Source of the DNA: an uncultured Gammaproteobacteria bacterium
GTDB taxonomy: Bacteria; Pseudomonadota; Gammaproteobacteria; UBA9214
Length of the DNA: 64,000 nt
Assembly: GCA_963748215.1 (NCBI GenBank)
Contig: CAVVHS010000006.1
Span: 339,259-403,258 of the forward strand
Direction of reading: 5' to 3'
Shown here: piece after piece, positions 1-17,914 of the stretch
Layout: every line of letters starts with the position of its first letter
How positions within the stretch are numbered: the first letter of the stretch is position 1
Program-made: the position numbers and the translations under genes
Notes under the pieces: generated by a model
The model's database searches: none
Seen by the model: the letters and a program-made list of their open reading frames with translations, nothing else
What the model was told of the DNA's origin: nothing

Positions 1-332
1 ATCGAGCTGACCTTGCGGTAACCGAGCAGTTGCATGGTATGGGCTGCGAGCGCGCTGCGATTGCCGGAACGGCACACCACCACCACATCCAGATCCCGCG
101 CCTCGACCAGGCCCCGGATGGTGTCCTCGTAATTGTATTCGCACGCCGCTTCGAGTATGCCGCGCGGGACATGCAGCGATTCCTCGATGTGCATAGCGGC
201 GAACTCGTCCGCCTCGCGCACATCGAGGATCAGCGGCCTGCTGCCACCGCCAAGCAGGTCGGCGACATCCCAGGGGTAGACCTCGGTGATATCCGGCAGA
301 CAGGCGGCGATCAGGTCGGTAAAACGCTTCAA
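1..332 (-). CDS. Rhodanese-domain sulfurtransferase (C-terminal part truncated by window edge)
   Basis: Minus-strand translation gives ...ILDVREADEF..HI.ESLHVPRG...VVVVCRSGNRSA, a rhodanese active-site Cys loop (CRSGxRS). Probable TTG start near 330; gene runs off the window at position 1. The track ORF 30..548(+) is antisense to it. Confidence 0.55.
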   Translation of the reverse strand, partial: MKRFTDLIAACLPDITEVYPWDVADLLGGGSRPLILDVREADEFAAMHIEESLHVPRGILEAACEYNYEDTIRGLVEARDLDVVVVCRSGNRSALAAHTMQLLGYRKVSS

Positions 333-344
333 GAAATTACCTGC

Positions 345-1019
345 TCAGCTGCTATCTTCGCTGTCGTGGTTGCGTCCTGTGCGCATGCCCTGTTCGACTG
401 CGATGACCGCGGCCTCGACCCGCGAGTGCACACCGAGCTTGCGCAGGATGGACTTGACGTGCAGCTTGACCGTACCGTCCGAAATACCGAGGTTGCGTGC
501 GATGACCTTGTTGCTCTGGCCTTCGGCCAGCAGTGCCAGTATCTCTGACTCGCGTGGCGTCAGCTTGGCGAACGGGCTTTCGTCGGGCGGGCTGATGCTT
601 TCGCCCTGCACCACGCGGGCCAGTACCGGCGCCAGGTCGGGCGCCACCACCGTCTTGCCGGCCACGATGTCACGCAATGCCAGCACCAGCTGGTCGGGTT
701 CCATGTCCTTCAGCAGGTAGCCCTGCGCACCGCTGCGCAGCGATTCGACCAGGTCGCGCTCGTCGCTGCTGGTGGTGAGCATGGCAACCGGGTTCTTGAA
801 GCCGCTCTTGCGCAGCTGGCGCAGCACCTCCATGCCATCCATTTCCGGCATGCGCATGTCAAGCAGCACGACATCTGGCTTGAGCTCGTTGGCCAGGCGC
901 AGTCCTTCCTGGCCGCTGCCGACTGCCGCGAGTATGTTGATATTGCGCCGGCTCAGCAGGCCCTCGAGGCCCTCGCGAAACAGGGTGTGATCGTCGACCA
1001 GCAGTATATTAAGGCTCAT
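345..1019 (-). CDS. NarL/FixJ-family response regulator (REC + LuxR-type HTH)
   Basis: MSLNILLVDDHTLFREGL...DVVLLDMRMPEMDG receiver domain with a C-terminal LuxR HTH (LTPRESEILALLAEGQSNKVIARNLGISDGTVKLHVKSILRKLGV). Stop overlaps the start of the upstream kinase (1016-1019). Confidence 0.85.
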   Translation of the reverse strand: MSLNILLVDDHTLFREGLEGLLSRRNINILAAVGSGQEGLRLANELKPDVVLLDMRMPEMDGMEVLRQLRKSGFKNPVAMLTTSSDERDLVESLRSGAQGYLLKDMEPDQLVLALRDIVAGKTVVAPDLAPVLARVVQGESISPPDESPFAKLTPRESEILALLAEGQSNKVIARNLGISDGTVKLHVKSILRKLGVHSRVEAAVIAVEQGMRTGRNHDSEDSS

Positions 1020-2572
1020 GATTTCGTACCGCCCGGCGTTGGATTCCTGATTTCAAGGGTGACGCGCGTTCCTTCACCGGGTTCACTTTCGATGCGCAGG
1101 TCGCCGCCGATCTTGCTGGCGCGCTCGCGCATGATAGTCAGGCCGACGTGTTCGCCCGGCGATCCGTATACCTGCTTGTTGATACCGATACCGTCATCCT
1201 CGATCAGGATATGGCAGAACTCGGTGTTGGCCCCACGGAGCAGTATACGCACGGTCTTGGCCTGGCTGTGCTTGCGTATGTTCCACAACGCCTCCTGTAT
1301 TATACGCAGGATCTGCGTCTCGGTGTCCCTCGGAAAGGTACTGGCTGAACAGTCTTTCTGGATATAGGTCCGGATACGGGTCTCGTTGCGGAACTGGCTG
1401 ACCATCTGCTCGATGGCCTCGACCAGGCCACGCTGGTAGGCCGGTGCGCGGAAGTTCGCGATCAGGCCGCGCAGCTCGGTATTGGCCTCGTCGAGACTGT
1501 TCTCGATCCGCTCGAGCTGTTGCCAGGTGGTGGATTCGTCGCCCTGGTGCAGGGTTTCGTCCAGCACGCGCACCTGGAAACGCAGACTGGCCAGCGTTTG
1601 CGCCAGCGAATCGTGCAGCTCGTGGGCAATACGTATGCGTTCCTCCCTGATCAGGTGCGCACGGTTCTCCTCGTCGTTGTAATACCGCTCGATGGCGACG
1701 CTGAGGTGGTGTGCCACACTGGTCAGCAGGGGCTTGATAGCCTCGGCCTGCTCGAGTAACTCCGTATCGAGGAACAGGTTGATCACACCGGTGATCCTGC
1801 CGCGATAGCGCATGGGGACCGAGACCAGCCCGATGCCTTCCTGTTCGAACAGGCGGCGGCCGGCGATTCGCTCGCACTTGTCGAGGTTCTGTTCGATCCA
1901 GATCTTGCCCTCGGTCGCGGCGCGTTCGTACAGGCAACGCCTGAATTCGTGCCGGTTGGGCAGCAGCAGATCATCGTCGATACCACTGCTGGCGCCGAGT
2001 TCGGTCTGTTGCTGGTTATGATCGACCCAGATGGCCGCGCCATGCGCGCGCGTGATGCGCTTGACCGTGTACATAAAGCGCGTCAGCAGGTCATCGAGAC
2101 TGTGTGCGGTATTGATGCTCGACACCACATCGTAGAGGATCTTGAGCGAGTCGGCCTCGAGGTCTGCCTTGTCCAGGGGGACGGGCTGCCGGCTGTTATC
2201 GGACGAGGTCATGCGTTTGCCGATGATATTCAGGTCTTCCGCCAGTTCGCTGAAGACGCGATCGGGCGGCGCGACAATCGGATCGGTATGCCGTCCGTCG
2301 CGCAGGCTCGCGGCCCAGGCCCTGATTTCGCGCAGCGGGTTGAGCAGGTTGTTTTGCACCAGCGTGGCGATCGACAGTATCAGCAGGAACCCCGATGCCG
2401 CCAGCATCGCGGCGAGCAGCATCCTGTTCTGGCCTTTCTCGAGCAACGGCAAGTCGATACTGAAGCAACCCACGGCTGCCGCGAGTATCAGCAGCAATAG
2501 CGCCAGGCGTGCGAACAGGCGGCGGCGTAACGTCGTGTCCTTGCCAGGGCCATGCGGGGTTCGCCTGTTCAT
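1016..2572 (-). CDS. Sensor histidine kinase, 2TM-HAMP-GAF-HisKA_3-HATPase (NarX/UhpB-like)
   Basis: Two N-terminal TM helices, a HAMP-like linker, a central GAF-like region, the HisKA_3 H-box HELHDSLAQTLASLRFQ and a C-terminal HATPase (DDGIGI...GLTIMRERA). Lies directly downstream of dsrR on the same strand. Confidence 0.8.
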   Translation of the reverse strand: MNRRTPHGPGKDTTLRRRLFARLALLLLILAAAVGCFSIDLPLLEKGQNRMLLAAMLAASGFLLILSIATLVQNNLLNPLREIRAWAASLRDGRHTDPIVAPPDRVFSELAEDLNIIGKRMTSSDNSRQPVPLDKADLEADSLKILYDVVSSINTAHSLDDLLTRFMYTVKRITRAHGAAIWVDHNQQQTELGASSGIDDDLLLPNRHEFRRCLYERAATEGKIWIEQNLDKCERIAGRRLFEQEGIGLVSVPMRYRGRITGVINLFLDTELLEQAEAIKPLLTSVAHHLSVAIERYYNDEENRAHLIREERIRIAHELHDSLAQTLASLRFQVRVLDETLHQGDESTTWQQLERIENSLDEANTELRGLIANFRAPAYQRGLVEAIEQMVSQFRNETRIRTYIQKDCSASTFPRDTETQILRIIQEALWNIRKHSQAKTVRILLRGANTEFCHILIEDDGIGINKQVYGSPGEHVGLTIMRERASKIGGDLRIESEPGEGTRVTLEIRNPTPGGTKS

Positions 2573-2614
2573 CCTGCGCTACGGGTGCGGCATACGGCAG
2601 GCAGGCGGCCCTGC

Positions 2615-2929
2615 CTATTTGCCGGGCCTGATGTAATTGACATCATTCGGATTCAGGAAGATCAATTGCCAGCTGTCCGGTTCGATTTCCACGTAATCCA
2701 CCGTCATGCCGTCAACCAGGATCTGGCTGGATTCGCCTATGACGATATCGATGTCCTCGACACTGAGCCGGTGATCGCCATCCAGCCGGTTGTCGTCGAA
2801 TCCCAGGCCGTAGTGAATGCTGCCGTCCGGATCGCGGCGAGCGGCGATGCGCAGCGCAAGGCCTTGCATATTGCCCTCCGCTGCGGCGGCGCGGATCTGT
2901 TCGGCGGCAGCCGGGGTGATGGTAATCAT
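2615..2929 (-). CDS. dsrR: DsrR, IscA/HesB-like protein lacking the conserved cysteines
   Basis: 104 aa beginning MITITPAAAEQIR, a HesB/IscA fold signature, with no Cys residues. Sits after dsrN as in Allochromatium vinosum dsrNR. Confidence 0.7.
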   Translation of the reverse strand: MITITPAAAEQIRAAAAEGNMQGLALRIAARRDPDGSIHYGLGFDDNRLDGDHRLSVEDIDIVIGESSQILVDGMTVDYVEIEPDSWQLIFLNPNDVNYIRPGK

Positions 2930-2972
2930 GATAACTCCTTGATGTAGACGGGCATTATACCCGATGCGGGAT

Positions 2973-4346
2973 TCATTTGCCGTGCCTGCGGGTGGCGCGT
3001 ACGAAGCCGACGAAGCGCCTGGCCCAATGGTGCTGACCGGTATCGCGCATGTGGCTGTAGCAGGCGACCAGATTGTTGAGGATCAGCCCGTCGTGCCGGC
3101 TGTCAATCCCGGTGCCACGCACCACCTCGTAGGCATAGTCGAGGCCGGGTGGAACGTTTTCAAGGCTGGAGTAGTGGAACTCGTGTGCGGCGATGACACC
3201 GTCCGGGTGTGGTGCCGGCCAGGGTGACTTGCCGGTCTCGAGCAGCCGGACGTAACCGCGACCCTGCGGTCGTTCGTGCATGACCACGTCGCCCGGTATG
3301 GCGCCGACCATGTCGCAGCGTGCGCCATTCCAGCTCAGGCTGCGTGCGAGGTACATCAGGCCGCCGCACTCGGCATAGACAGGCAGACCGTTTGCAATGG
3401 CGTCCCTGATCCGGGCCCGCAGGGCGCTGTTCGCCTGCAGTTCCTGCATGCGGCTTTCGGGGAAGCCGCCGCCGATGAACAGGCCGTCGATGTCCGGCAG
3501 CTGTGCGTCGCGCAGGGTATCGATCGGCACCAGCTCCGCGCCGGCGCGCTGCAGGGCATCGAGGTCGTCCGGGTAGTAGAAACCGAAGGCGGCATCGCGG
3601 GCAATGCCGATGCGAACCGTATCGCCGCCGGCTTGCGCAGGCGGTACGGGATCGAAGGCGAGCGGTGTATTACCCGCCACCGCGAGCACCCGGTCCAGGT
3701 TGACCTGGGCGGCGATCAGCCGGCTGATATGGTCGATCTTGCCGCGTGCCGCGTTATCCTCGTTGCTCGGTATCAGTCCGAGGTGGCGTTCGACGATCTC
3801 CAGCTCCGCGGCGCGGTGCACGCCGCCGAGCACCGTCAGGTCGGTGTAGTGTTCGATGACCGCCCGCAGCTTGGCCTCGTGACGGCTGCCGCCGAGCTGG
3901 TTGAGAATCACGCCGGCGATACTGACTCGGGGATCGAATGCCTGGTAGCCGAGGATCAGGGGCGCGATACCGCGCGTCATGCCGCGCGCATCGAGTACCA
4001 GCACCACCGGAGTCTGCGTCAGCGTGGCCAGTGCGGCATTGCTGTTGCTGCCGTCCAGGTCGAGGCCGTCATACAGGCCCTTGTTGCCCTCGATCAGCGC
4101 GATATCGGCATCGGCCGAATAATGACCGACCGCGGTGAGGATCTCCGCGTGGGTCATGCAATGGAAATCCAGGTTGTGGCAGGGTCGCCCGGCCGCCTGC
4201 CCGAGCCACATCGGGTCGATGTAGTCAGGTCCCTTCTTGAAGGGTTGTACGACGAGGCCGCGTGCCGCGAGCGCTGCACACAGACCGATAGTCACGGTGG
4301 TCTTGCCGGACGATTTATGGGCTGCCGAAATCAGCAGGCGGGACAT
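2973..4346 (-). CDS. dsrN: DsrN, cobyrinic acid a,c-diamide synthase (CbiA/CobB) homolog; siroheme amidase in dsr clusters
   Basis: 457 aa with the N-terminal P-loop ISAAHKSSGKTTV, a CbiA-family AAA domain and a C-terminal glutamine amidotransferase domain. Position between dsrP and dsrR. Confidence 0.8.
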   Translation of the reverse strand: MSRLLISAAHKSSGKTTVTIGLCAALAARGLVVQPFKKGPDYIDPMWLGQAAGRPCHNLDFHCMTHAEILTAVGHYSADADIALIEGNKGLYDGLDLDGSNSNAALATLTQTPVVLVLDARGMTRGIAPLILGYQAFDPRVSIAGVILNQLGGSRHEAKLRAVIEHYTDLTVLGGVHRAAELEIVERHLGLIPSNEDNAARGKIDHISRLIAAQVNLDRVLAVAGNTPLAFDPVPPAQAGGDTVRIGIARDAAFGFYYPDDLDALQRAGAELVPIDTLRDAQLPDIDGLFIGGGFPESRMQELQANSALRARIRDAIANGLPVYAECGGLMYLARSLSWNGARCDMVGAIPGDVVMHERPQGRGYVRLLETGKSPWPAPHPDGVIAAHEFHYSSLENVPPGLDYAYEVVRGTGIDSRHDGLILNNLVACYSHMRDTGQHHWARRFVGFVRATRRHGK

Positions 4347-4396
4347 GTTGTCAGCAGTCCCCGGGAGTGCTCCGCGTTGCCGGTCCTGGTGACGGC

Positions 4397-5611
4397 TCAG
4401 GCAGCATCCGCGGCAGCGTGATGGGGATCCACCTGGTCGTCGGCCAGGCTGACCGGCAGGAAGCGCAGGACGCGTGTGCCCACCACGGTGGCGGCGAGTG
4501 CCAGCGCGACGCCGCCGATGCCGAGCATGAACTCGGGCAGGCTGGGTTTATAGCTCGCGACGACGCCATCAAAGAAGGAACTGCTTACCTCCTTGCCGGG
4601 GAACAGTTCCATCGGATAGGCCTGGCCGCCGATGATGATGACGTACATCTGGGCGAGTCCGCCAACGATGACCAGCAGGCAGGCAATGCCGATCCACAGC
4701 CGTGACTTGCCGGCCGGTCCGTACAGCAGGGCGAGTGGCAGCAGGCTGCCCAGGCCGATCTGCACAAACCAGAACAGTGTGGTGTAAATGCCGCCATCGA
4801 GCAGGATGAAACGTTCCACACCGTGGTTTTCCGTGATGTAGAGGTTGGTCAGGTGGTAGGCCAGTACGAAATACAGCACGCCGGCGATAAATACACCGAG
4901 CAGGTTTTTCAGGCGGAACAGGACGGCATCGCCGAGCGGGCGTTGCGACCAGTTGTACAGGCCCATCAGCACGAGGATGAAGATCGCCAGTCCGAACGAG
5001 AACGACATGACGATGAACATGGGCGCCATGATGGCGGCATCGTAGGCCTCGCGTGCAACGAGGAAGCCGAAGATGGAGCCGGTACCGGTGGTCAGGATCA
5101 GGCGCCAGATGAACGCAGACATGCCGGCGGGCCGGGTGAAGTCGTTCATCTTGCGCTCCATCATCATCCACAGGTACACGGCGACGATCGCCATGAAGCC
5201 GGTATAGAGCATGATGTTCCAGGCAAAGATGGACTTGAAGTTGTAATAGGTCATGGCCACGATCAGCCGGTCCGGATGACCGAGGTCGAGTACCAGCACG
5301 GCCAGGCCGCCGACCAGCAGGGTAATGGCGAGCAGGCCGGACAGGCGCGCGAGCGGCTTGTACAGGGTCTTGCCGAACACCGAGCTGATGGATGCGACAT
5401 TGAGTGCGCCGGAGGCGGCGACGATCAGGAACACGGCGAACACGTGCGGCGTGCCCCAGACGACCTGGTTGTTCATGCCGGTGACCCAGTGTCCGTTGTG
5501 TTCCATGTAATACGCGGCACCCAGGCCGGCAAGTACGAATACGCCGATCGCGGCAACCAGCATGTAGAACGGCCGGCCGCCATCGATTTCCCTGTAATCT
5601 AGTGGTTTCAT
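4397..5611 (-). CDS. dsrP: DsrP, NrfD/PsrC-like polytopic membrane subunit of the DsrMKJOP complex
   Basis: 404 aa, about 10 predicted TM helices, NrfD-like. Start overlaps the dsrO stop at 5611. Confidence 0.75.
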   Translation of the reverse strand: MKPLDYREIDGGRPFYMLVAAIGVFVLAGLGAAYYMEHNGHWVTGMNNQVVWGTPHVFAVFLIVAASGALNVASISSVFGKTLYKPLARLSGLLAITLLVGGLAVLVLDLGHPDRLIVAMTYYNFKSIFAWNIMLYTGFMAIVAVYLWMMMERKMNDFTRPAGMSAFIWRLILTTGTGSIFGFLVAREAYDAAIMAPMFIVMSFSFGLAIFILVLMGLYNWSQRPLGDAVLFRLKNLLGVFIAGVLYFVLAYHLTNLYITENHGVERFILLDGGIYTTLFWFVQIGLGSLLPLALLYGPAGKSRLWIGIACLLVIVGGLAQMYVIIIGGQAYPMELFPGKEVSSSFFDGVVASYKPSLPEFMLGIGGVALALAATVVGTRVLRFLPVSLADDQVDPHHAAADAA

Positions 5612-6357
5612 CAGATCCCCCGGTAACGTACGCCGGTATTAAGCTGCAAGTCGGCACGAATCTGCTGCGAACTGTGCTGCTTCAGTGCCCTGGAAATGTC
5701 GCTGGCCGGATCGTTCAGGTCGCCGAACACCATGGCATTATGGTTTTCGGCGGTGCAGGCCTCGACGCAGGCCGGTGTGCGGCCGCTGTCGACACGATGG
5801 ACACAGAAGTTACAGGACTCGACGGTGCCCTTGCCGCGTGGTGTGTCCGGCAACTGGTCTGTCAGGTCTTCGTGAATGAAGGAGCGGGCCTTGTACGGGC
5901 AGGCCATCATGCAGTAGCGACAGCCGATACAGATGTGCTTGTCGACCAGCACGATGCCATCGGCACGCTTGAACGAAGCGCCGGTCGGGCAGACATCCAC
6001 GCAGGGCGGATGCTCGCAGTGCTGGCACAGCAGGGGCAGTGTCTGGGCATGACCGGTCTGCTTGTCCTTGAGCTTGACCTTGCGTATCCATTGCGCGTCG
6101 GTTTCCGGCCGGTCGAAGCCGGTCAGGCCGTGTTCGTCATTGCAGGCCGTGACGCAGTCGTCACAGCCCTCGGCGCATTTGCCGGAGTCTATCAGCATGC
6201 CCCAGCGTACCGCACTGGTGACAGCCTCTTTGGCCGGTTTTGCATGACCGATTTCGTGCAGGAACAACCCCGGTACGACGGCCATGCCGGCCGCTGCCCT
6301 GGCAGTCCCGCTGAGGAAGCGGCGACGATAGGTGTCGATGCCTGTTTCTTCACTCAT
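5611..6357 (-). CDS. dsrO: DsrO, periplasmic (Tat) 4Fe-4S ferredoxin-like subunit
   Basis: Tat motif RRRFLSGTARAAAGMAV and multiple CxxCxxCxxxCP ferredoxin motifs. The track ORF extends to 6552; the likely real start is the Met of MSEETGIDTYRRRFL. Confidence 0.75.
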   Translation of the reverse strand: MSEETGIDTYRRRFLSGTARAAAGMAVVPGLFLHEIGHAKPAKEAVTSAVRWGMLIDSGKCAEGCDDCVTACNDEHGLTGFDRPETDAQWIRKVKLKDKQTGHAQTLPLLCQHCEHPPCVDVCPTGASFKRADGIVLVDKHICIGCRYCMMACPYKARSFIHEDLTDQLPDTPRGKGTVESCNFCVHRVDSGRTPACVEACTAENHNAMVFGDLNDPASDISRALKQHSSQQIRADLQLNTGVRYRGI

Positions 6358-6805
6358 GAGCAATACCCTCTCTGGCCATGACATGCGGCTGGTCGGTGCT
6401 GCCGGCAGACACGGTCTGGCGCTGGCCGGGTTTGACCGGCCGGTCTGCGTGACACTGGAAACAGTCGATATGCACTGCCGCGTAGCTGTGGCAGCTATTG
6501 CAGAAATGCTCCTCGCTGCTGACGCGGGGTGCGTCAGGCGCATCGCTGACATGGCATTTGATGCATTCCTTCAGGCTGTGGCGGCTGCCGCGAATGCCCT
6601 CGTGCACGGTTTCATCGCGCTCGTGCAGGATGTATTTCATGTGGTTCTTGCGCATGTCCGCGGTGGGTTCCACACAACCCTGGGCTTCGCTGAAGCGCGC
6701 CTGGGCCGCGGGTATCTCCGGGAGCAGGGAATCACCGGCCCGACCTGGCACTGCAAGGCCGGCGGTGATTGCCATTAGCAGGATGATGAGACTGTGTTTC
6801 AGCAT
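6350..6805 (-). CDS. dsrJ: DsrJ, triheme c-type cytochrome
   Basis: Three CxxCH motifs (CIKCH, CNSCH, CFQCH) after a signal peptide MLKHSLIILLMAITAGLAV. The track ORF is 5'-extended to 6976. Confidence 0.8.
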   Translation of the reverse strand: MLKHSLIILLMAITAGLAVPGRAGDSLLPEIPAAQARFSEAQGCVEPTADMRKNHMKYILHERDETVHEGIRGSRHSLKECIKCHVSDAPDAPRVSSEEHFCNSCHSYAAVHIDCFQCHADRPVKPGQRQTVSAGSTDQPHVMAREGIAHE

Positions 6806-6836
6806 GACTGTGTCGTGTCCGCCATTTTGTATCCGG

Positions 6837-8807
6837 TTAGTGATCGCCCATGGCCATATCGATATAGCCGGTGGGGCAGACGTCCGAGCAGATATGACAG
6901 CCGATGCACTTGTCATAGTCGGTATCGACGTAGCGGCCCATGGTCGCCTGGTCCTTCTTGACACGGAAGATGGCATCCTGCGGACAGTAGATCACGCAGT
7001 TGTCGCACTCGAAGCACATGCCGCAGCTCATGCAGCGCTCGGCCTCGCTGACGGCCTGCTCGGGAGTCAGGCCGATGCCGCGTTCCTCGAAATGCCCCAG
7101 CACTTCCTCGGCACTCGGCCCCTTGGCGGAACGCTTGTTGCGCGGGGTGAACGGGAAGTGGCCAAGGAACAGGCGATCGGAGGAAATGATTTCCGAGCTG
7201 GAGCGGTCCTCGTAGTTGTGAACCGCGAACTGGGCATGATCGGTACCACGCATGTCGCCCATTTCATCCGCCTTGAACGGGGCCGGCGCATGGTTGGTCT
7301 CCTGGAGTTTCTTGAGCAGCTCGAAGTGGTGCACGTCGACCTTCGGGCGCTTCTTCTGCTCTTTCTGCTTCAGGTAGTGATCGATGCTCTCGACGGCAAT
7401 GGAGGCCTGACCGATGGCGGTGGTCAGCAGGTGCGGACGGATGATATCGCCGGCGACGAAATGGCCCTTGCGGCCCGGGACCTGGTAGAAGGCATCGGCG
7501 TCGATCAGGCCGCGGCCGTTGTCCAGGGACTCGAGCCCCTGGGACAGGTCGCCGCCCTGGCCGATGGCGGAGACGATGAGATCGCATTCGACCTCGAATT
7601 CGGTGCCTTCAACCGGGTTCGGACGTCCGTCCTTCATCTCGCACTTGGCCATCTTCAGGGCGCAGGCGCGGCCTTCGTCATTGACTACGACTTCGATCGG
7701 CATGACACCGTTCAGGATCGTGACACCTTCGCGCAGCGCGTCCTCGACCTCGTGTTCGGTGGCGGTCATTTCCTCGCGTTCGAACAGCGAGGTCAGTGTC
7801 ACCTCGGCACCCTCGCGGGCGGCCGCAAAGGCCGAGTCATGTGCGACATATCCGCCAATGACCTGTTCCGGACGGACTTCCTTGTTGATCTTGCTGATCT
7901 TGCCGAGGCGGCGTGCGACGGACACGACGTCGATGGAGGTATCACCGCCACCCACGCAGACCACCTTGTCGGCGGTGACCTGCAGGGTGCCCTTGTTGAA
8001 GGCTTCCAGGAAGGCAACGCCGGACACGCAGTTGGGCGCGTCGCTGTTGGGTACCGGCAGTTTCCGGCCCGATCTTGCAACCCATGGCCCAGAGAATGGC
8101 GTCGAATTCCTTTTCGATCTGCTCGATGCTGATGTCCTTGCCGACGCGGGTATTCATGCGCAGTTCGATGTCGCCCATGTCGACGATGCGCTGGCATTCA
8201 TGGTTGAGCACGTCGCGCGGGGTACGGTAGCCGGGGATGCCGTAGCGCATCATGCCGCCGAGTTCCTCGTGATCGTCGAAGATGGTGCTGGCATGGCCGA
8301 TGACGGCGCAGCTGGTAGGCGGCTGCCATGCCGGCCGGGCCGCCGCCGATGATGGCGATCTTTTTGCCGGTGAGCTTGGCGCGCTGCCTCGAAGGTGAAT
8401 TTCTTCTCGAAGGCGGAGTCGCCGATGAACTGCTCGACGGCGTTGATACCGACGAAATCCTCGACATTGTTACGGTTGCAGCCGTCTTCACACGGCGCCG
8501 GGCAGACGCGGCCCATCATGGACGGGAACGGGTTGGCGTCGGTGGAGCGGCGGAACGCATATTCTTCCATGCTCATGTCACCGGTCGGCTTCTCGATGCC
8601 GCGCACGATCTGCAGCCAGCCACGGATGTCTTCGCCGGACGGGCAGCTGCCCTGGCAGGGCGGCGTGCGGTGCACATAGGTCGGGCACTTGTGGGACGTG
8701 TCTTCATTGAAGATGTCGTCACCGATACGCGAATAGGTGTAGTCGCCATCCTTGAACCGACGGAAAGAGAGCTTGTCTTTTGCCATGTCTTCTTTTGAAG
8801 TTGCCAT
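6837..8807 (-). pseudogene. dsrL: DsrL (NAD(P)H:acceptor oxidoreductase, GltD-like Fe-S flavoprotein); reading frame interrupted by >=3 frameshifts in this sequence
   Basis: DsrL-like pieces lie in four different minus-strand ORFs: 8250-8807 (MATSKEDMAKDKLSF...), 8198-8491 (LTGKKIAIIGGGPAGMAAAYQLRR), 7942-8253 (MMRYGIPGYRTPRDVLNHE...) and 6837-8027 (C-terminal ferredoxin domain CIGCHICSDVCP). Frame changes fall near 8400, 8310 and 8050. Total span is 657 codons, matching full-length DsrL. Confidence 0.75.
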
Positions 8808-8857
8808 GCCTGTTCTCCTGTTATCTGATCAGGTGTTACCTGAGCAAAACTCAAAAA

Positions 8858-10348
8858 TTACTGTTTGTTGCCGAGCACGATCGCGTTGCTGACCAGCTGG
8901 TGCACGCTGACGATGCTGTCCATCTTGAAGCCGTAGTAGGGCAGGACCTTGGCGAACTGGCTCTTGCAGATGGCACAGATTGCGGCCATGTGGGTCACGC
9001 CATGGTTTTCGACCACGTGCTTCAGGGCCTCCATGCGCGGCAGGGCGCCCTTGACGCGCAGTTCCATCAGGTCGTCGGTCAGCAGGCCGCCGCCACCGCC
9101 ACAGCAGAAGGTGGCGTCGTGGATGGTGTCCTGCGGCATGTCGTAAAAGTGATTGCAGCTGGCCTTGATCACCTCGCGCGGCATGATGAACTGCCCGCCC
9201 GGCATCGGCCCCATGCGCGAGGCACGGGCGACGTTGCAGGAGTCGTGATAGGTCAGCACCATATCGTCATTGGCCGACTTGTCCAGCGTGATCGCGTTGC
9301 GCTGGATCAGGTCATAGGTGAATTCCAGATGTGCTGCGGTACCGGGTATTTCGGATCGAGGAAATCGAACGGCCCGGCCAGGGTGTTCAGGAAGCTGTAG
9401 GCAACACGCCAGGCATGACCGCATTCACCGAAGACGATGCGCTTTACACCGAGATCGAGCGCGGCCTCGCGGATGCGCAGCGACACCTTGCGCATGTTCT
9501 CGTAGCTGCCGATGAACATGCCGAAGTTGGCGGCCTCGCTGGCATGCGAACTCAGCGTCCAGCTGATGCCGGCCTCGTGGAATACCTTGGCGTAGCCCAT
9601 CAGGCCGTCGACGTGCGGCTCGGCGAAGAAGTCCGCCGACGGGGTCACCAGCAGTATGTCGGCGCCTTTCTCGTCCAGCGGCAGGCGCACCTTGACGCCG
9701 GTGTCGTCCTCGACGTCCTCTTCCAGGCCTTCCAGGGTGTCTGCCAGGGCCGGTTCCGGCAGGCCGAGGTTGTTGCCGATCTTGTAGACCTTGCCGATGA
9801 TTTCGTTGCAGTACTTCTGGCCGACACCGACGGAATCCATGATCTCGCGCGCTGCCATGGAGATTTCGGCGGTGTCGATGCCGTAGGGGCAGAACACCGA
9901 GCAGCGCCGGCACTGCGAACACTGGTGGAAGTAGCTGTACCAGTCGTCCAGCACTTCCTTGGTCAGGTCGGTCGCGCCAACCAGCTTGGGAAAATACTTG
10001 CCGGCGAAGGTGAAGTAACGGCGATAGACCTTGCGCAACAGATCCTGGCGCGCAACCGGCATGTTTTTCGGATCGGTGGTGCCGAGGTAGTAGTGGCACT
10101 TGTCGGTGCAGGCGCCGCACTTGACGCAGGAGTCCAGGAATACCTGCAGCGAGCGGTATTTGCCGTAGCAGCTCTTCCATCTTGTCGATGGCGACCTGCT
10201 GCCAGTTGTCGACCAGCTCGCCCGGGAAGCCCAGCTGCTGCTGGAACTCTTCCTTCGCCACAAACGGCTTGCTGTGCGCCATCACCCCTTCGTGAAGGGT
10301 CGGGATGACGGGATATTCTTTCAGCTCCGGTACTTCGAAATCAGCCAC
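8858..10348 (-). pseudogene. dsrK: DsrK (HdrD-like catalytic subunit, CCG domains); frame interrupted by 2 frameshifts
   Basis: N-terminus MADFEVPELKEYPVIPTLHEG in ORF 9425-10348; the middle (CVKCGACTDKCHYY ... GECGHAWRVAYSFLNTLAG) in ORF 9307-10263; the C-terminus (HDSCNVARASRMG ... CCGGGGG ... CAICKSQF) in ORF 8858-9424. Near 10180 the sequence ctgctAcggcaaa looks like a 1-nt insertion that is not in a homopolymer. Confidence 0.75.
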
Positions 10349-10381
10349 GCTCTGCTCCTGGTACGATCGTTATGCCGGTGG

Positions 10382-11110
10382 TTATTTCTCGAGTTCTGCC
10401 GCCCACGGTGCCAGGTGGCGCTGTTCGCGCGGGTTGTCCACCTGGTTGCGCGTCGGGCTGAAGAATACACCCGGTGCATGCAGCAGTTTGCTGATCGGGA
10501 AGATGATCATCAGCGTGGCGACCAGCCCGAGATGCACCAGCAACAGCGGATCTTCGGGAATGGGCTGCCAGTTGAAATACATCAGGCCCAGGAAAAAGGC
10601 CTTGAGCGACACGATGTCGGTGTGCGAAATGTAATCCATGCTCAATCCGGTCAGTGCAATACCCATCAGCAGTGCCAGCATCAGGTGATCGGACAGGGCG
10701 GAGATATAGCGCACCCGGTCCACCAGCACGCGGCGCGCCCACAGGCCGGCCAGTCCGGCGACCATGGCGAAGGCGGCATACAGGCCGAACGGCTGGATGA
10801 GCTCGACCCAGGTCCAGACCGGGTTGGTGAAATAACGCAGGTGGCGTGCCAGCACCAGGAACATGCCGAAGTGAAACAGGTAGCCGAAAATCCAGATCCA
10901 CTTGTTGGAACGGAACAGGCTCTCGAAGAACGCCACTTCCCGGAACATGCGCAGCACGACGCCCTGGCGCGTGACCGGTGCCGGGGTGGTCGGAATCTTC
11001 AAGGGTGCCGGTGTTTTTGCATACTTGCTGATCCTGTAGGCCAGGCCGCCGATCAGCAGGGCGGTGGCAACATAGAACAGAAGTGCATACACAATGGTCC
11101 AGAACGGCAT
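10382..11110 (-). CDS. dsrM: DsrM, NarI-like dihaem cytochrome b membrane subunit
   Basis: 242 aa, five TM helices, conserved His ligands, NarI-like; intact. Confidence 0.8.
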   Translation of the reverse strand: MPFWTIVYALLFYVATALLIGGLAYRISKYAKTPAPLKIPTTPAPVTRQGVVLRMFREVAFFESLFRSNKWIWIFGYLFHFGMFLVLARHLRYFTNPVWTWVELIQPFGLYAAFAMVAGLAGLWARRVLVDRVRYISALSDHLMLALLMGIALTGLSMDYISHTDIVSLKAFFLGLMYFNWQPIPEDPLLLVHLGLVATLMIIFPISKLLHAPGVFFSPTRNQVDNPREQRHLAPWAAELEK

Positions 11111-11186
11111 GCTACCTGGCTCCTGTTAGGGTTGTAAGATTCAGAAGGGCTGCAGGGGATGTCCCCTGCAGCCTTCGGTTGTTGCG

Positions 11187-11522
11187 TCAGACGCAGCCGG
11201 TCGGCTTCGGCAGACCGGCGTACTTGCAGGCCTGCTTGGCGGGACCGTACGGGAACAGCTCGTACAGGTACTTGCTGTTGCCCTTGTCCTTGCCCAGCTT
11301 CTTGCCGATGGCCTTGGTCAGCACGCGAACGGCCGGGGCGATCTGGTATTCCTCGTAGTATTCACGCAGGAAATTGATCACTTCCCAGTGGTTCTCGGTC
11401 AGCTCACAGTCGTCGAGCTTGGCCATGACATCCGCCACGTCCTTGTCCCATGTATTCAGGTCAGCCAGGTAACCTTCTTCGTCAGTTTCGTAAGTCTTGC
11501 CGTTCGCTTCAATTGTACCCAT
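11187..11522 (-). CDS. dsrC: DsrC sulfur-carrier protein
   Basis: 111 aa ending ...PAKQACKYAGLPKPTGCV, with both conserved C-terminal-arm cysteines present; intact. Confidence 0.9.
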   Translation of the reverse strand: MGTIEANGKTYETDEEGYLADLNTWDKDVADVMAKLDDCELTENHWEVINFLREYYEEYQIAPAVRVLTKAIGKKLGKDKGNSKYLYELFPYGPAKQACKYAGLPKPTGCV

Positions 11523-11566
11523 GTGAGGTCTCCTCGTTGGATGACGCTAATCAAAAAAAATGAAAA

Positions 11567-11863
11567 TCAGAGCCAGGACTGTACCTTGTCGTTGGCTGTA
11601 ACCAGATCGACGAACCCGCCGTAATCGATGACGTCGACGCCATCCAGCAGCTTGTCTTCCGTGATGCCGCGCGCGGCCAGGTCCGGCCCGAGCACGGCGA
11701 CCTTGAGGCCTTTCAGCAGGCTTGCCGCCTTGCCGTTTTTCATCGCTCCGTAAATACCATCCTCGATGAGCAGCAACTGGTCGCCATCCTTCATGATGGT
11801 CGATGCCGTGTTCAGGCTGCCGGTGTCGTAGGGTGACTTGTTTACCAGGTGTAACATTGCCAT
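11567..11863 (-). CDS. dsrH: DsrH (TusB-like)
   Basis: 98 aa beginning MAMLHLVNKSPYDT, DsrH/TusB fold; position after dsrF. Confidence 0.75.
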   Translation of the reverse strand: MAMLHLVNKSPYDTGSLNTASTIMKDGDQLLLIEDGIYGAMKNGKAASLLKGLKVAVLGPDLAARGITEDKLLDGVDVIDYGGFVDLVTANDKVQSWL

Positions 11864-11881
11864 TATTCCGGGCTCCCTGTA

Positions 11882-12292
11882 CTAGAAGTTGAACAGCACG
11901 TCTTGCTCGGCGAGCACGTCTGCCATTTCCGCGCGTGTGACCAGGCGGATGGAATCCTTTTCCGCGTAGTCCTCGTCCTCGTCTTCCCAGACCAGGTGTT
12001 GCAGGTCATCCAGGGTCAGGCCGCGTTCCTCGAGGGATTCCTTCTCGACGTAGATCTTGTTGACCTCGTAGTCACCCAGCGCGGCGTAGGTGGGCGAGAA
12101 GTTTTTCATGCCGATGCCCGCGGTGTCCTGGCCCTTGACGAGCTGGTACACACCGTCGTCCAGGAAGGCCATGCTGACGTCCTGTTCGAAGGCGGCGCCG
12201 ATCAGTACCACTTCCAGCGATTCCCACGCATAGATCGTCCCGTAGGGCGCCCTGCGGTTGATGTACATCATTTTCTTGGATTCTTCAGACAT
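11882..12292 (-). CDS. dsrF: DsrF (TusC-like)
   Basis: 136 aa, DsrF/TusC family; position between dsrE and dsrH. Confidence 0.75.
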   Translation of the reverse strand: MSEESKKMMYINRRAPYGTIYAWESLEVVLIGAAFEQDVSMAFLDDGVYQLVKGQDTAGIGMKNFSPTYAALGDYEVNKIYVEKESLEERGLTLDDLQHLVWEDEDEDYAEKDSIRLVTRAEMADVLAEQDVLFNF

Positions 12293-12306
12293 TGCCGCTC
12301 TCCCGC

Positions 12307-12700
12307 TCAGTCGCCGAACACGACCAGTCGATCGCTCTGGACGCCACCTTCGATCAGCTGACCCAGTCCGGAAATGCGGAAGCCGGGGGCGATGTTGGTT
12401 GCGTCCTTGCCGTTACGCTGCGCCTCGCCCTCGTCGACGATGCCGCGCCGCTGGGCGGCAGCCACGCACACCACCATGTCGATGTTGTGTGCCTGTCCCA
12501 GTTCACTCCAGCGCTTGACGATATTGCGATCGTCCTGCGGCGGTGTGGTCAGGCGCGTGCCGTTGTTGACGCCGTCGTGGTAGAAAAAGATACGAAAGAT
12601 CTCGTGTCCCTTTTCCAATGGCCGCCTTGGCGAAAAAGTAGGCCGTGTCCGCGGCCTGGTGCTGGTAGGGCCCCTCGTTAACCTGGATTGTAAGCTTCAT
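12307..12700 (-). pseudogene. dsrE: DsrE (TusD-like sulfurtransferase); 1 frameshift
   Basis: N-terminus MKLTIQVNEGPYQHQAADTAYFFAKAAI is in ORF 12503-12700; the rest (EKGHEIFRIFFYHDGVNN ... CVAAAQRRG ... RLVVFGD) is in ORF 12307-12618. At the junction attgGaaaaggg reads as a 1-nt insertion. Confidence 0.75.
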
Positions 12701-12715
12701 TCACATACCCTCTGA

Positions 12716-13793
12716 TCAGAAACGGATATGGGTTGAAGCGTTCAGGCTTGCACGGGCACCACGCCAGTTGTCGATGTGGTACTTGGTGAACGGCAGCCCG
12801 GTCTTCTCGAAGAAACGCGGCCAGCCGATACGCTCGATCCAGTCGTTGATACGCTCCCAGTCCTTGGCGTCTTCCTTGTAGACCTTGAGGATCTTCTTGA
12901 CGACGGCGGTGGCTTCCGGCCAGCGCGGCGGGTTGTTCGGGATGCCGGAGGCGACCAGCTTCTGGAAGGTCGGCTTGCCGCGGGCATTGGAGTGGTTGCC
13001 GCCCACCCAGATGGCCAGCTTGGAGTGCTCGGCGTCGTTGATCTGCATCGGCGGGCAGGGCGGGTAAGCAGGCACCGCAGCAGATGCACTTCTTCTCGTC
13101 GACTTCCAGCGACGGCTTGCCGTTGACCAGTGCCGGGCGAATGGCCGCGACCGGGCAGCGTGCCACGACCGACGGACGCTCGCAGACGTTGGACAACCAG
13201 GTCGTGGTTGATCTTCGGCGGCTTGGTGTGCTGCACGTTGATGGCGATGTCGCCCTGGCCGCCGCAGTTGATCTGGCAGCAGGAGGTGGTCATGTGCACG
13301 CGGTTCGGCATGTTCGCAGCCTTTGAACTCGTCGATCAGCTCGTCCATCATCGACTTGACCACGCCGGAGGCGTCGGTGCCCGGGATGTCGCAGTGCAGC
13401 CAGCCCTGGGTGTGCGACATCATGGCGACGGAGTTGCTGGGTACCGCCGACGACGAAGCCGGCATCTGTCAGCGCCTTGATCAGCGGCTCGACCTTGGCC
13501 TCGTCGGACACCATGTATTCGATGTTGCTGCGAATGGTGAAGCGCACATAACCCTCGCCGTAGGTGTCACCGATTTCGCACAGCTTGCGCAGGGTGAACA
13601 GGTCGAGGATACGCTGGGTGCCGGCGCGCACGGTCCAGATCTTGTCGCCATTGTTGGCAACGTGCAGCAGGACGCCGGGCTGCGGATCTTCGTGATAGGC
13701 CCACTGCCCGTAGTTCTTGCGCATTACCGGGTGCATGTACTGGAATCCGTCAGGACATCCGGATTCGATCGGCGAACGCATTTCTTGTGCCAT
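12716..13793 (-). pseudogene. dsrB: DsrB, dissimilatory sulfite reductase beta subunit; >=4 frameshifts
   Basis: DsrB segments alternate between three minus-strand frames: 13290-13793 (N-terminus), 12716-13465 (SNSVAMMSHTQGWLHCDIPGTDASG, and again the C-terminus INDAEHSKLAIWVGGNHSN...), 12742-13311 (MTTSCCQINCGGQGDIAINVQHTKPPKI) and 12678-13196 (VDEKKCICCGAC). Shift points fall near 13440, 13320, 13200 and 13055. Confidence 0.8.
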
Positions 13794-13880
13794 GTGATTC
13801 TCCTGAAAATCTCTTCAAGTTTTTGAACAAATCCCGGCGTTTGTACGCCGGGGTTGTCATATATGAACGGGTTGACCGGC

Positions 13881-15147
13881 TTACGCGGAGGCAGCCTGCT
13901 CCTCGGCCTTGCGCTCGAACCACTTCTCGGCTTCTTCGTCCCAGCCGTCCATGCGGACGTAGGAAGACTGGCGCGGGTTGCTGACCATGTTCGGGTCCAC
14001 CTCGACGCCGATGCCTTCGAGGAAGTTGACCAGACCGATACGCTCGATCATTTCACCGCAGCGCTCGTGCTCCAGGCCGTTCTCGGCCCAGAAGTCGATG
14101 ATCTCCTCGGCCATTTCACTGCAGGCTTTCGTAGTCTTCCTCGGTTTCCAGCTTCTTGAACGGGACCACCACGGTACCCATCAGGTCGCCGATCTTCAGC
14201 GTGCGCTTGCCGCCGATCAGGATGGTGACGCCCTTGTCGTCGCCCGGGTGCAGCGCCTTCGGCATGACGTTCAGGCAGTGCATGCAGCGCACGCAGTTCG
14301 TGGTTGTCGACGGTCGATGGTGTCGTCGTCGTTCAGGGTCAGGGCCTTGGTCGGGCAGCGGGTGATGACGTTGTCGATCACGTACTGACGGCCTTTCTTG
14401 CCGACGTAGTCCTTGACTTCTTCCTGGTCGACCTTCATGTCGTCGCGCCAGGTGCCGATGACGGCGAAGTCGGCGCGCTCGATGGCGTTCTGGCAGTCAT
14501 TCGGGCAACCGGAGACCTTGAACTTGAACTTGTAGGGCAGGGCCGGACGGTGCACGTCGTCGGTGAAGTTGTTCACCAGCCAGCGCTGGATGCCGTGCTC
14601 GTTGGCAGCAGGACATTTCGCAGCGCGCCGCACCGACACAGGACATGGCGGTACGCACGCACGGGCCGGCACCACCGAGATCCCAGCCGTACTCGTTGAT
14701 TTCGTCGAAGAAGTGCTGGGTGTTTTCGGTGGTGGTACCGATAAACATGATGTTGCCGGTCTGGCCGTGGAAGGTCACCAGGCCGGAACCCCATTTTTCC
14801 CAGCTGTCGCCGAGCTGGCGCAGCATGTCGGTGGTGTAGTAGTTGCCGGCCGGCGGCTGCACGCGCAGGGTGTGGAATTCCTTCGATTCCGGGAAGGCCT
14901 TGCCGACTTCGGAGAAGCGCGGGATGATGCCGCCGCCATAGCCGTAGACACAGACGGTGCCGCCTTTCCAGTAACCCTTGCGGGTTTCGTAGGAGTGCTC
15001 GAGCTGACCCAGCAAACCGTTGGTGACGTCGTTGATGCGTTCGTCCGGGTGCTCGTCACGCAGCCGCTTGATGCCGGTGATGAAGCTCGGCCAGGGGCCG
15101 TTCTCGAGTTCGTCCAGCATGGGAGTCGGGTAGGTGTTCTTGGCCAT
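13881..15147 (-). pseudogene. dsrA: DsrA, dissimilatory sulfite reductase alpha subunit; >=3 frameshifts
   Basis: N-terminus in ORF 14497-15147 (MAKNTYPTPMLDELENGPW ... SCVGAARCE), the middle in ORF 14271-14675 (KFKFKVSGCPNDCQNAIERADFAVIGTW), the C-terminus in ORF 13881-14114 (IIDFWAENGLEHERCGEMIERIGL). Total span 422 codons, matching full-length DsrA. Confidence 0.85.
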
Positions 15148-15507
15148 GGCAATAATCTCCTGGATTGTTTTCTACACCAATTGGTTTGCTACTGATGACA
15201 GCGCGCGCTGTCGCCCTGCCGGGCAACTGGAAATCAGCGAGTTATACGGAATTACAACAGCGTAACTCTCAGTTGAGCGCATTGTAGAAAGGCTCTGCGG
15301 GTATACATATCCTACCCTTGGGGTGGCGCCTATATGGGCCCGTATCCCGAACGGGGTATTGGCAGAATATTGATTTAATTTCCGGTAGTTATCAGAGTTG
15401 CCCGGATTTACTAATGCGTACAGAACTTTTTCTTATATTAACGCGCACTTAAGTAACCCTTTCTCAACCGGAGAAACGGGATTGCCGGTGTGATTTCAGC
15501 TATTTAG

Positions 15508-15524
15508 ATGAGAATCACTCTCAT
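15508..15524. promoter_or_regulatory. Perfect 6-5-6 inverted repeat ATGAGA-N5-TCTCAT in the divergent dsrA / dioxygenase promoter region
   Basis: Read directly from the sequence in the AT-rich 480-bp intergenic region between dsrA (15147, -) and the 15633 (+) gene. Confidence 0.25.
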
Positions 15525-15632
15525 TAGCAATTGGCCGCCGGCAGCGCAGGCAAGTCCCGGCCCCATGTATTAAACATTTAAGTGTGACCGTAAGATACAG
15601 GCTCCTGAAAAACCGGCCCGTCGCACAACTCC

Positions 15633-16577
15633 ATGATACACAGTCCAGACAGCTTTCGACCCTTTGACCTTGCCGGCGATGCCGACTACCGGGTCTGGCG
15701 CGCGTGGAAGCTGGATGGCTACCCCGTGGCCGCCGCCGACCTGATTGTGGACGTCGGCGATCCGGCGCACCTGTCAGCGGCCGAGCATGCGGCGATCCTG
15801 GCGCGCTGCCGCAAGGCCAATATGGCGATTTATGCCGTCCGGGGTGGTGGTAGCGCGGACAAGGAGGCGGTGCGCGCACTGGGCAGGCAGTTCGGGCTGG
15901 AACGTCTGGACATGAACCTGCGCGCCGACGAGGACAGCATCACCGCGTTGCGGGTGGTACCGGAATCGGCGGGGACCCGTTACATCCCCTACACCAACCG
16001 GCCGCTGAACTGGCATACCGACGGTTACTACAACACGCTCGACGAACAGGTGCGGGCCATCCTGATGCACTGCGTGTCCGCCGCGGCCAGCGGCGGCGAG
16101 AGTGTGCTGTTCGATCACGAACTCGCCTACCTGTTGCTGCGTGACGAGAATCCGGATTACATTCGCGCGCTCATGCAGCCGGACGCCATGACCATCCCGG
16201 CCAACATAGAGGACGGCCGGCAGATCCGCGGCGCGCAATCCGGTCCGGTCTTTACGGTTGAAAAGGGTAGCAACGCCCTCCATATGCGTTATACGGCACG
16301 CACCCGCAGTATCGAGTGGAAGGACGACCGGGACGTGCGCAATGCCATCGAATTCCTGCGTGAATTGCTGGACAGCGACCTGCCCTGGATCTTCCGGCAC
16401 CGGCTGCAGGCCGGACAGGGCATTATCTGCAATAATGTACTGCACAGGCGCGATGCCTTTGACGACGCGGCGGGTGACGGACAGGCCCGGCTGCTGTACC
16501 GGGCGCGTTATCACGACCGGATCCGCGCGACCGTCGCCGACAATGATTTTTATGGAGACAGGCAATGCTGTGGTTGA
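15633..16577 (+). CDS. TauD/TfdA-family Fe(II)/2-oxoglutarate-dependent dioxygenase-like protein
   Basis: 314 aa with a His-x-Asp motif in NWHTDGYYN and overall TauD-like spacing; divergent from dsrA. Confidence 0.6.
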   Translation: MIHSPDSFRPFDLAGDADYRVWRAWKLDGYPVAAADLIVDVGDPAHLSAAEHAAILARCRKANMAIYAVRGGGSADKEAVRALGRQFGLERLDMNLRADEDSITALRVVPESAGTRYIPYTNRPLNWHTDGYYNTLDEQVRAILMHCVSAAASGGESVLFDHELAYLLLRDENPDYIRALMQPDAMTIPANIEDGRQIRGAQSGPVFTVEKGSNALHMRYTARTRSIEWKDDRDVRNAIEFLRELLDSDLPWIFRHRLQAGQGIICNNVLHRRDAFDDAAGDGQARLLYRARYHDRIRATVADNDFYGDRQCCG

Positions 16578-16756: not shown

Positions 16757-16768
16757 CCCCGGCGGTCA

Positions 16769-17467: not shown

Positions 17468-17694
17468 CCTTGTCGGTCAGGCGCTGTCCCGGGCGAGGCC
17501 TGCCATTCCGGTGTTGCGCGATAAATACCTGCCCGCGCGGCTGAGACCCGCCAGGACAGCCGGCAAACCGTCGTATAAGGAAACGCACTTCGGCCGGCTT
17601 CCCATATGGGATATGTTCGGTGCTCGGGCAACTGGCTATAGTTGCGCTTATTCAATAATTTACAACGACTTGACTCGCATCCGGAGAGAAGATC

Positions 17695-17898: not shown

Positions 17899-17914
17899 TC
17901 AGGCGTAATAGCAA

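Follow-up and report, generated by a model that had tools for sequence, protein, structure and literature searches.

A putative sensor-regulator-rhodanese cassette at the 3ʹ end of a reverse-Dsr sulfur-oxidation operon of uncultured Gammaproteobacteria

We analysed a stretch of 64,000 nucleotides (hereafter the window, meaning the whole stretch) from an uncultured gammaproteobacterium of the GTDB lineage UBA9214 (assembly GCA_963748215.1, contig CAVVHS010000006.1, positions 339,259 to 403,258 of the forward strand). Near its first letter, the last canonical gene of a reverse-Dsr sulfur-oxidation operon, dsrR, is followed on the same strand by genes for a sensor histidine kinase, a NarL-like response regulator and a single-domain rhodanese. 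We tentatively read these three genes as a signalling cassette incorporated at the 3ʹ end of the dsr operon, a reading to which we give slightly less than an even chance. The tail itself is not a local accident: more than 40 related species carry it behind dsrR.

Gene layout and conservation of the dsrR tail

The genes and domains concerned are, in the order of their transcription:

2973-4346, minus strand: dsrN
2615-2929, minus strand: dsrR (IscA-like, 104 aa), the last canonical dsr gene ahead of the cassette; Pfam Fe-S_biosyn 32.6 bits, NCBIfam TIGR00049
2573-2614, minus strand: intergenic spacer of 42 nt, from the dsrR stop to the kinase ATG
1016-2572, minus strand: sensor histidine kinase, 518 aa, recognised from Pfam domains, hydropathy and partial NarQ/NarX matches
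1688-2107, minus strand: GAF domain of the kinase (residues 156-295), GAF_2 E=8.6e-11, with C213 at 1934-1936 and C233 at 1874-1876
1046-1642, minus strand: transmitter of the kinase (HisKA_3 and HATPase_c), with the phospho-acceptor H317 at 1622-1624
345-1019, minus strand: NarL-like response regulator, 224 aa, with a receiver (Response_reg) and a GerE/LuxR helix-turn-helix domain
1-332, minus strand: single-domain rhodanese, N-terminal 110 of 156 aa; Pfam Rhodanese E=4e-13

The kinase stop codon and the regulator ATG overlapped by 4 nt (ATGA, 1016-1019), and the rhodanese started at a TTG codon (332), 12 nt past the regulator stop; the overlap and the gene order are in line with an earlier reading of the same DNA made from the sequence only. 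The rhodanese open reading frame (ORF) was cut by the window edge; the full gene encodes 156 aa in two contigs that are 99.9-100% identical to the window (L174 and L175). The sequence-only reading had placed 43 bp between dsrR and the kinase; the tight same-strand junction stood, whereas the length was measured as 42 nt. It had also named a strong terminator or promoter at this point as a finding that would speak against its reading. Consensus scans of the spacer revealed no promoter- or terminator-like site, and the RNA of the junction was not unusually structured (fold z = -1.0), with a 5-bp GCAGG/CCTGC hairpin and no U tract. The common strand, the short junctions and the lack of consensus signals between the genes are what would be expected of members of the dsr operon, and in the window organism the dsr mRNA probably extends through the cassette. 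Where the kinase was at least 60% identical, relatives had dsrR-kinase spacers of 13-60 nt; so short a spacer hardly accommodates a promoter, so that read-through from the one of the dsr genes would be the simplest reading for the window's clade.

To follow the tail in other genomes, we scanned one genome per GTDB species and obtained 47 orthologous loci, with kinase identities of 41-86%. Past these orthologs the identity dropped sharply to 28-38%, the level of generic HisKA_3 kinases from Streptomyces and others. Kinase orthologs were numerous in uncultured Gammaproteobacteria at 60-98% identity, and their overall range was 41-98%. The order dsrEFHCMKLJOPN-R-kinase-regulator-rhodanese was found, by a tblastn synteny map and ORF mapping, in 43 of the 44 loci in which the contig reached far enough, with kinase identities down to 41%; in the sole exception, L049, the cassette adjoins DsrC-like and DsrL-like genes, and neither dsrR nor dsrN accompanies it. 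Look-ups anchored on DsrC added four loci in which dsrR is again followed by the kinase, the synteny up to the rhodanese being kept in Thiohalobacter, the Granulosicoccaceae genome and others: the complete chromosome of Thiohalobacter sp. IOR34 (CP128988.1, L167), a Granulosicoccaceae metagenome-assembled genome (MAG; L168) and two further lineages (L169 and L170).

The spacing of the genes was conserved as well. The 4-nt overlap of kinase and regulator was kept in 43 of 52 loci, and the gap between regulator and rhodanese was mostly 9-36 nt; in two loci (L051 and L052) the kinase-regulator pair was kept without the rhodanese. Across the dsr-linked set, the regulator was by far the most conserved protein (71-96% identity), in comparison to 41-84% for the kinase and 47-84% for DsrR (79% between the window and L001). 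Genes further downstream of the cassette varied among the loci. Because synteny, spacing and conservation hold across the loci, we regard the cassette as an appendix to the dsr operon that is stably co-inherited across a broad clade. This bears out the earlier reading that the two-component genes belong with the operon, for which the keeping of the tail in close relatives had been proposed as a check. Literature searches, which included the Thiohalobacter genome papers, turned up no account of a kinase, regulator and rhodanese linked to dsr. Just beyond the start of the window (4006-4323 of L174) there is a gene of about 105 aa, convergent with the rhodanese, in which only a Peptidase_S24 (LexA-type protease) domain was recognised; it is kept in nearly all loci (L001, L003 and others, at 47-85% identity) and is followed by epimerase and UDP-glucose dehydrogenase genes.

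It had further been claimed that no DsrS homolog is present. This holds for the position after dsrR and fails for the window as a whole. In L172, the gene after dsrR encodes a domain-less protein of 379 aa, which is presumably DsrS, judging from its position, size and lack of domains. Its first 42 residues matched the window at 26659-26781 (56% identity over 41 aa, E=1e-11), within an ORF of 384 aa (26638-27792, plus strand; 377 aa from the aligned Met), and neither the product of this ORF nor that of the L172 gene had a Pfam or NCBIfam hit. The ORF, 24 kb away from the cassette, is a probable DsrS homolog. It stands in a row on the plus strand, between a Sel1-repeat protein gene (26158-26628) and the genes of glutaredoxin 3 (grxC, 27811-28071) and siroheme synthase CysG (28096-29496). 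Since a probable DsrS homolog is kept elsewhere, the cassette would be an addition and not a simple replacement of dsrS.

Several dsr genes of the window are split over two frames by single-base indels relative to close relatives: dsrL (6840-8807), dsrK (8861-10348, with indels for example near 10166 and 9328), and dsrB and dsrA (12716-15147). Within the segments, amino-acid identity was 84-95% (dsrK and dsrL). A long contig with 97% identity (L173) has different broken genes, and L174, a short-read contig with 99.9% identity, is intact in the overlap. Given these two contigs, decay of the operon was judged less likely as the cause, and assembly error is the likeliest explanation of the dsrA, dsrB, dsrK and dsrL indels. 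The cassette genes themselves are intact in the window, the rhodanese being cut only by its edge.

The sensor kinase, the regulator and the rhodanese

The kinase was composed, according to Pfam, of a GAF_2 domain followed by HisKA_3 (residues 311-377, 53.8 bits) and HATPase_c (418-509, 59.7 bits). Hydropathy indicated two transmembrane (TM) segments, at about residues 19-43 and 50-72, with an outside loop of roughly 6-10 aa. The architecture read earlier, 2TM-HAMP-GAF-HisKA_3, was recovered, with the HAMP domain only weakly detectable. The segment after TM2 scored 13.7 bits (cut-off 25) and aligned with the first half of the model only, as a degenerate HAMP-like linker, whereas in the Thiohalobacter ortholog HAMP was significant at the homologous position (33.1 bits). 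H317 lies in an invariant RIAHELHD box, as expected of a HisKA_3-class kinase; the closest solved transmitters were those of DesK and VraS, and, judged by its motifs, the kinase is catalytically intact.

In one subclade (L025-L032 and the proteins P0117-P0119, of about 399 aa), the kinases start at about residue 115-130, have neither TM helices nor the HAMP-like linker, and thus are soluble GAF-HisKA_3-HATPase_c proteins that start directly after dsrR. The membrane anchor is therefore dispensable and, since there is no periplasmic domain and some orthologs are soluble, the conserved input module would be the cytoplasmic GAF domain.

Public pipelines name the kinase orthologs NarX or NreB. We considered NarX/NarQ membership and rejected it, as the periplasmic four-helix domain with its P-box was not found: the TM1-TM2 loop has only a few residues, and some orthologs have no N-terminus at all. 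On the corresponding equivalog models the kinase reached 176.6 bits for NarQ (cut-off 553) and 116 bits for NarX (cut-off 578), and only residues 275-510 aligned. Searches against the PDB found no NarQ sensor or NreA chain even at E<=10. The kinase had no PAS match and does not show the NreB-type arrangement of a PAS domain with four cysteines and an Fe-S cluster.

The GAF domain is the best-conserved non-catalytic part of the kinase. Its AlphaFold2 model was a confident GAF fold (predicted local distance difference test score, pLDDT, 86), and the family was narrow, with 263 cluster representatives among 1.84 billion at E<1e-3. Sequence searches of the domain against the PDB gave nothing for NreA, the NarQ central module, the heme GAF domains of DosS/DosT or the GAF domain of free methionine sulfoxide reductase. 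Two cysteines were conserved in nearly all dsr-linked kinases, C213 (in RRCLYERA) in 53 of 57 and C233 (in KCE[KR]IAG) in 54 of 57.

The regulator showed the features of the NarL/FixJ family, with a complete set of receiver hallmarks and with Pfam matches to Response_reg (100.4 bits) and GerE (82.3 bits). The NarL equivalog was its best NCBIfam match, with 230 bits against a cut-off of 250, and the partner kinase is not NarX/NarQ. Among solved structures, E. coli NarL was the best relative (169 bits, vs 118 for VraR). The regulator segment 'vvlldmrmp' aligned opposite NarL 'lilldlnmp', with an aspartate that we take to be the counterpart of the NarL phospho-acceptor D59. The recognition helix TVKLHVK, in comparison to TVKVHVK of NarL, keeps the K-x-x-x-K residues of that helix. 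By these comparisons, the regulator is NarL-like but not NarL. The window also encodes another NarL-family regulator, which shares 30% identity with that of the cassette and is located about 2 kb upstream of uvrC; this region (29616-34387, plus strand) resembles the usual uvrY-uvrC neighbourhood and has a gene for a thioredoxin-fold/NHL-repeat protein between the regulator and uvrC.

The third gene, which the sequence-only reading had correctly placed after the regulator, encodes a rhodanese (Pfam 50.1 bits) with the catalytic Cys loop of the CRxGxR type that marks single-domain rhodaneses; the loop, CRSGNRS, is conserved in the orthologs. It had no specific family assignment, and its best solved relative was a generic two-domain rhodanese, 6mxv. 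In the loci examined, the rhodanese never occurred apart from the kinase-regulator pair. Its position and spacing would suit a part in signalling no less than a supply of sulfur to DsrEFH/DsrC.

The dsrA upstream region and a possible separate promoter in distant relatives

To look for sites of the regulator, we used the intact N-terminal part of DsrA as the query of a metagenome scan and obtained 80 loci that include upstream DNA. In the closest relatives, the region corresponding to 15300-15460 (minus strand) was highly conserved and arranged as two AT-rich blocks, an inverted repeat, a second box and a -10-like element, TA[CG]AAT, with no good -35. In the window the inverted repeat is TACCCCGTTCGGGATA (15343-15358) and the -10-like element is TACAAT. 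The second box, CCCCA[AT]GGGTAGGATATG, lies exactly 35 bp downstream of the inverted repeat and has the form CCCCAWGGGTAGGATATG in the window. The dsrA 5ʹ leader is about 130 nt long. The inverted repeat, generalised to TAYCYC-N4-GRGRTA, and the CCCCAWGGGTAGG box were taken as the candidate targets of the regulator upstream of dsrA.

With up to two mismatches, the generalised palindrome was present at about -150 to -260 in 72 of 79 dsrA loci. Its strict form, TAYCCC-N4-GGGRTA, occurred nowhere else among 167 loci and once in the window. The palindrome had the geometry of a NarL 7-2-7 site and its orientation flipped between lineages, as expected for a protein-binding palindrome. The regulator may bind it. 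The strict E. coli NarL 7-2-7 consensus, with up to two mismatches, had no hit upstream of dsrA and two in other places, at chance level; the dsrA-upstream motifs had no copy close to the three cassette genes in any of the loci.

The dsrA leader also contains a hairpin, GTTGCCC/GGGCGAC (15197-15230), which recurs as GGTTGCC...GGCAAC in relatives, and a perfect 16-bp palindrome, GACAGCGCGCGCTGTC. An Rfam scan of positions 1-20000, the dsrA leader included, gave no family match. A cluster divergent from dsrA (15633-18532) comprises genes for a TauD-like dioxygenase (15633-16577), a Cas6/Cmx6 homolog (16769-17467) and a second DsrC/TusE-like protein (DsrC2, 18188-18532, minus strand). The Cas6/Cmx6 homolog (Pfam Cas6, 218 bits) is solitary, with no CRISPR array or other cas genes nearby, and in relatives a small ORF of about 64 aa lies between TauD and Cas6. 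The TauD-Cas6-DsrC2 cluster is kept in L167-L170 and L172, that is in Thiohalobacter, Granulosicoccaceae and Chromatiaceae-like lineages.

In the distant clade (41-50% kinase identity), the dsrR-kinase spacer was mostly about 50-300 nt long. The spacers of L033-L037, L040 and L167 (84-305 nt) had a conserved extended -10-like element, TGCTATAGTG, and most of them had a palindrome, CCTACAG-N3-CTGTAGG, about 25 nt upstream of it, which was absent from the window. This suggests that the cassette has an additional, probably autoregulated, promoter in the distant clade. A parallel is found in Allochromatium vinosum, where the dsr genes form one transcript, with extra promoters for dsrC and dsrS (PMC3368242).

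Possible signal, rival explanations and related systems

We propose, as tentatively as for the cassette itself, a mechanism in which the sensing of thiols or sulfane sulfur exerts feedback on dsr. The GAF domain of the kinase would sense a cytoplasmic and not a periplasmic signal, and its two conserved cysteines would most likely act as a thiol switch reporting sulfane sulfur or the thiol redox state. The rhodanese would load the switch with persulfide sulfur or mobilise the sulfur species that is sensed. Upon phosphorylation, the regulator would bind to NarL-type inverted repeats and adjust the transcription of sulfur-oxidation genes, and with the cassette carried on the dsr transcript the feedback loop would be closed. 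In its boldest form, which we find rather unlikely, the GAF-cysteine kinase loaded by its own rhodanese would sense sulfane sulfur directly in the cytoplasm, and the missing reverse-Dsr transcription factor of marine chemolithotrophs would be its NarL-like partner. If true, this would be the first histidine-kinase-based persulfide sensor, with a protein-to-protein sulfur relay as the signal input.

Several observations weigh against the proposed mechanism. Co-transcription was deduced from gene spacing, and operon membership is probably not universal, given the promoter-like element of the distant clade. For the GAF model, Foldseek returned generic GAF matches only (TM-scores of about 0.6-0.7, led by PtsP, Lcd1 and NifA). 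The two cysteines could equally bind a metal or a cluster, and the distant orthologs of the Thiohalobacter type have a CLCG...C arrangement (CxC...C), in which a third cysteine is added. In L019 and L032 both cysteines were replaced together (C213S and C233H), with the rest of the domain and the cassette kept; their joint conservation elsewhere and this joint loss suggest that C213 and C233 work as a pair. A link between the regulator and the dsrA-upstream operator is not claimed here, as its control failed: the palindrome was not specific to clusters bearing the kinase and the regulator. L172, a Chromatiaceae-like locus with the DsrS-type tail and no kinase after dsrR, has a perfect copy of it, and in L168 the TauD gene lies 134 nt downstream of it, with dsrA 1.5 kb away. 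The Ca. Thiosymbion lineage has neither the palindrome nor the TauD-Cas6-DsrC2 cluster. From this distribution, the operator is ancestral to both tail types and tracks the TauD-Cas6-DsrC2 cluster at least as well as dsrA.

The same data can be explained in other ways. The rhodanese may be, as the sequence-only reading suggested, a metabolic sulfurtransferase that is merely co-expressed with the regulators and passes sulfane sulfur to DsrEFH/DsrC, in the manner of Rhd_2599-TusA-DsrE2 of A. vinosum. Such a role is possible because DsrEFH and DsrC need an upstream sulfurtransferase, being themselves unable to mobilise sulfur from thiosulfate or glutathione persulfide (GSSH) (PMC3397948), and the intact CRSGNRS loop and the place in the dsr operon agree with it. 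However, this rhodanese was seen only behind the kinase-regulator pair, which two loci keep without it, no TusA or DsrE2 partner is adjacent, and it has no specific family and a generic rhodanese as its best solved relative, so that we find a purely metabolic role unlikely, though with an appreciable chance of being right. Alternatively, the kinase may be a general redox, quinone or oxygen sensor, with a thiol switch like that of ArcB/RegB, or with a metal or Fe-S site on the GAF cysteines, that tunes dsr to the supply of electron acceptor; the rhodanese would then have no part in signalling. The cysteine pair and the distant CxC...C arrangement are compatible with a disulfide switch or a metal/cluster site, and the kinase is membrane-anchored in most lineages; yet the soluble variants have no anchor, which quinone sensing would require, and a rhodanese almost always co-inherited at 9-36 nt is not needed by a pure redox sensor. 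We regard a general redox sensor as rather unlikely.

A nitrate- or nitrite-responsive system of the Nar type, or with an NreA-like GAF domain, that couples sulfur oxidation to denitrification through a true NarL seems improbable. The regulator does come close to the NarL equivalog and has NarL as its best solved relative, the transmitter resembles NarQ/NarX, after which public pipelines name some orthologs, and genes for NosR and a cytochrome cd1 nitrite reductase lie 5-8 kb downstream in near-identical contigs. Against this, the kinase has no periplasmic sensor and is soluble in some orthologs, its NarQ and NarX scores and the NarL score of the regulator all stay under the cut-offs, and a NarQ sensor or an NreA chain was unmatched; the denitrification neighbours are not conserved (L005 and L006), unlike the linkage to dsr. 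The same linkage, which holds in 43 of 44 loci from 86% to 41% kinase identity while the downstream genes vary, makes it very improbable that the cassette is an unrelated two-component system that stands beside dsr by chance and controls other genes. Such a system would be in keeping with the lack of a regulator site assignable to dsr, the promoter-like element before the kinase in the distant clade and the L049 cassette without dsrR or dsrN, but even the latter adjoins DsrC-like and DsrL-like genes.

By analogy, the nearest functional precedent for the proposed sensor-regulator-rhodanese mechanism is NreB-NreC. In Bacillus licheniformis, this system lies in the sqr-pdo cluster, responds to sulfide and drives sqr-pdo (PMC9918477). 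Like the cassette, it and the staphylococcal NreABC combine a HisKA_3 kinase with a NarL-family regulator; the former is also embedded in a sulfur-oxidation cluster and co-transcribed with it, as is likely for the cassette, and it senses in the cytoplasm with cysteine-dependent chemistry, as proposed here. The two differ in that NreB senses by a PAS domain with four cysteines (an Fe-S cluster), while in the cassette kinase the place of the PAS domain is taken by a GAF domain that has two cysteines, or three in the distant orthologs, and for which no relation to the nitrate-binding GAF of NreA was detected, and in that the targets are SQR/PDO in one case and, as proposed, reverse Dsr in the other. 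With NarQ/NarX-NarL of E. coli, the cassette shares the kinase class (HisKA_3 and HATPase_c after a HAMP segment, degenerate in the window kinase, and a central GAF-like module), a regulator closest to NarL in NCBIfam and the PDB, and the 7-2-7 inverted repeat of the candidate operator upstream of dsrA. It differs from them by the missing periplasmic nitrate-binding four-helix domain, scores far under the cut-offs, soluble orthologs, the attached rhodanese and a genomic context of dsr, not nar/nap/nir.

Two-component systems that lie beside dissimilatory sulfur-oxidation genes of a chemolithotroph and regulate them, as proposed for the cassette, are known as RsrS-RsrR and TspS-TspR in Acidithiobacillus caldus (PMC5093147). 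They have other regulator classes, sensor domains and targets (tetH/doxD, sox) and no rhodanese. The cassette logic proposed here is also similar to that of the persulfide-sensing repressors CstR, SqrR, BigR and YrkD, which combine a cysteine-pair switch, an operon rhodanese and sulfur-oxidation genes; those are, however, one-component repressors, whereas the cysteines of the cassette sit in the predicted GAF domain of a kinase. The regulators of the A. caldus systems presumably belong to the OmpR and sigma-54/NtrC classes. Compared with the DsrR/DsrS tail of A. vinosum, the cassette occupies the slot after dsrR that is held by dsrS there and in L172; unlike the cassette, DsrS, of about 380 aa, has no recognised domains and is not a signalling system.

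What is known of dsr induction is sketchy and comes from a single phototroph, A. vinosum (DsrR, DsrS and possibly DsrC); to our knowledge, no dsr-encoded factor other than DsrR and DsrS has so far been connected with dsr expression. The lineages that carry the cassette are Thiohalobacter, the Granulosicoccaceae of one MAG and, among others, many uncultured Gammaproteobacteria recovered mainly from metagenomes of sediment and other environments, and in these an operon-encoded sensor-regulator pair gives a concrete handle on the regulation of dsr. In metabolic reconstructions from metagenomes, the pipeline labels 'NarX' and 'NreB' would wrongly suggest nitrate or oxygen sensing by these organisms. 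The GAF cysteines, together with the co-inherited rhodanese, suggest a mechanism of signal input not yet described for histidine kinases, and the cassette is a good candidate for the dsr regulator in chemotrophic sulfur oxidizers.

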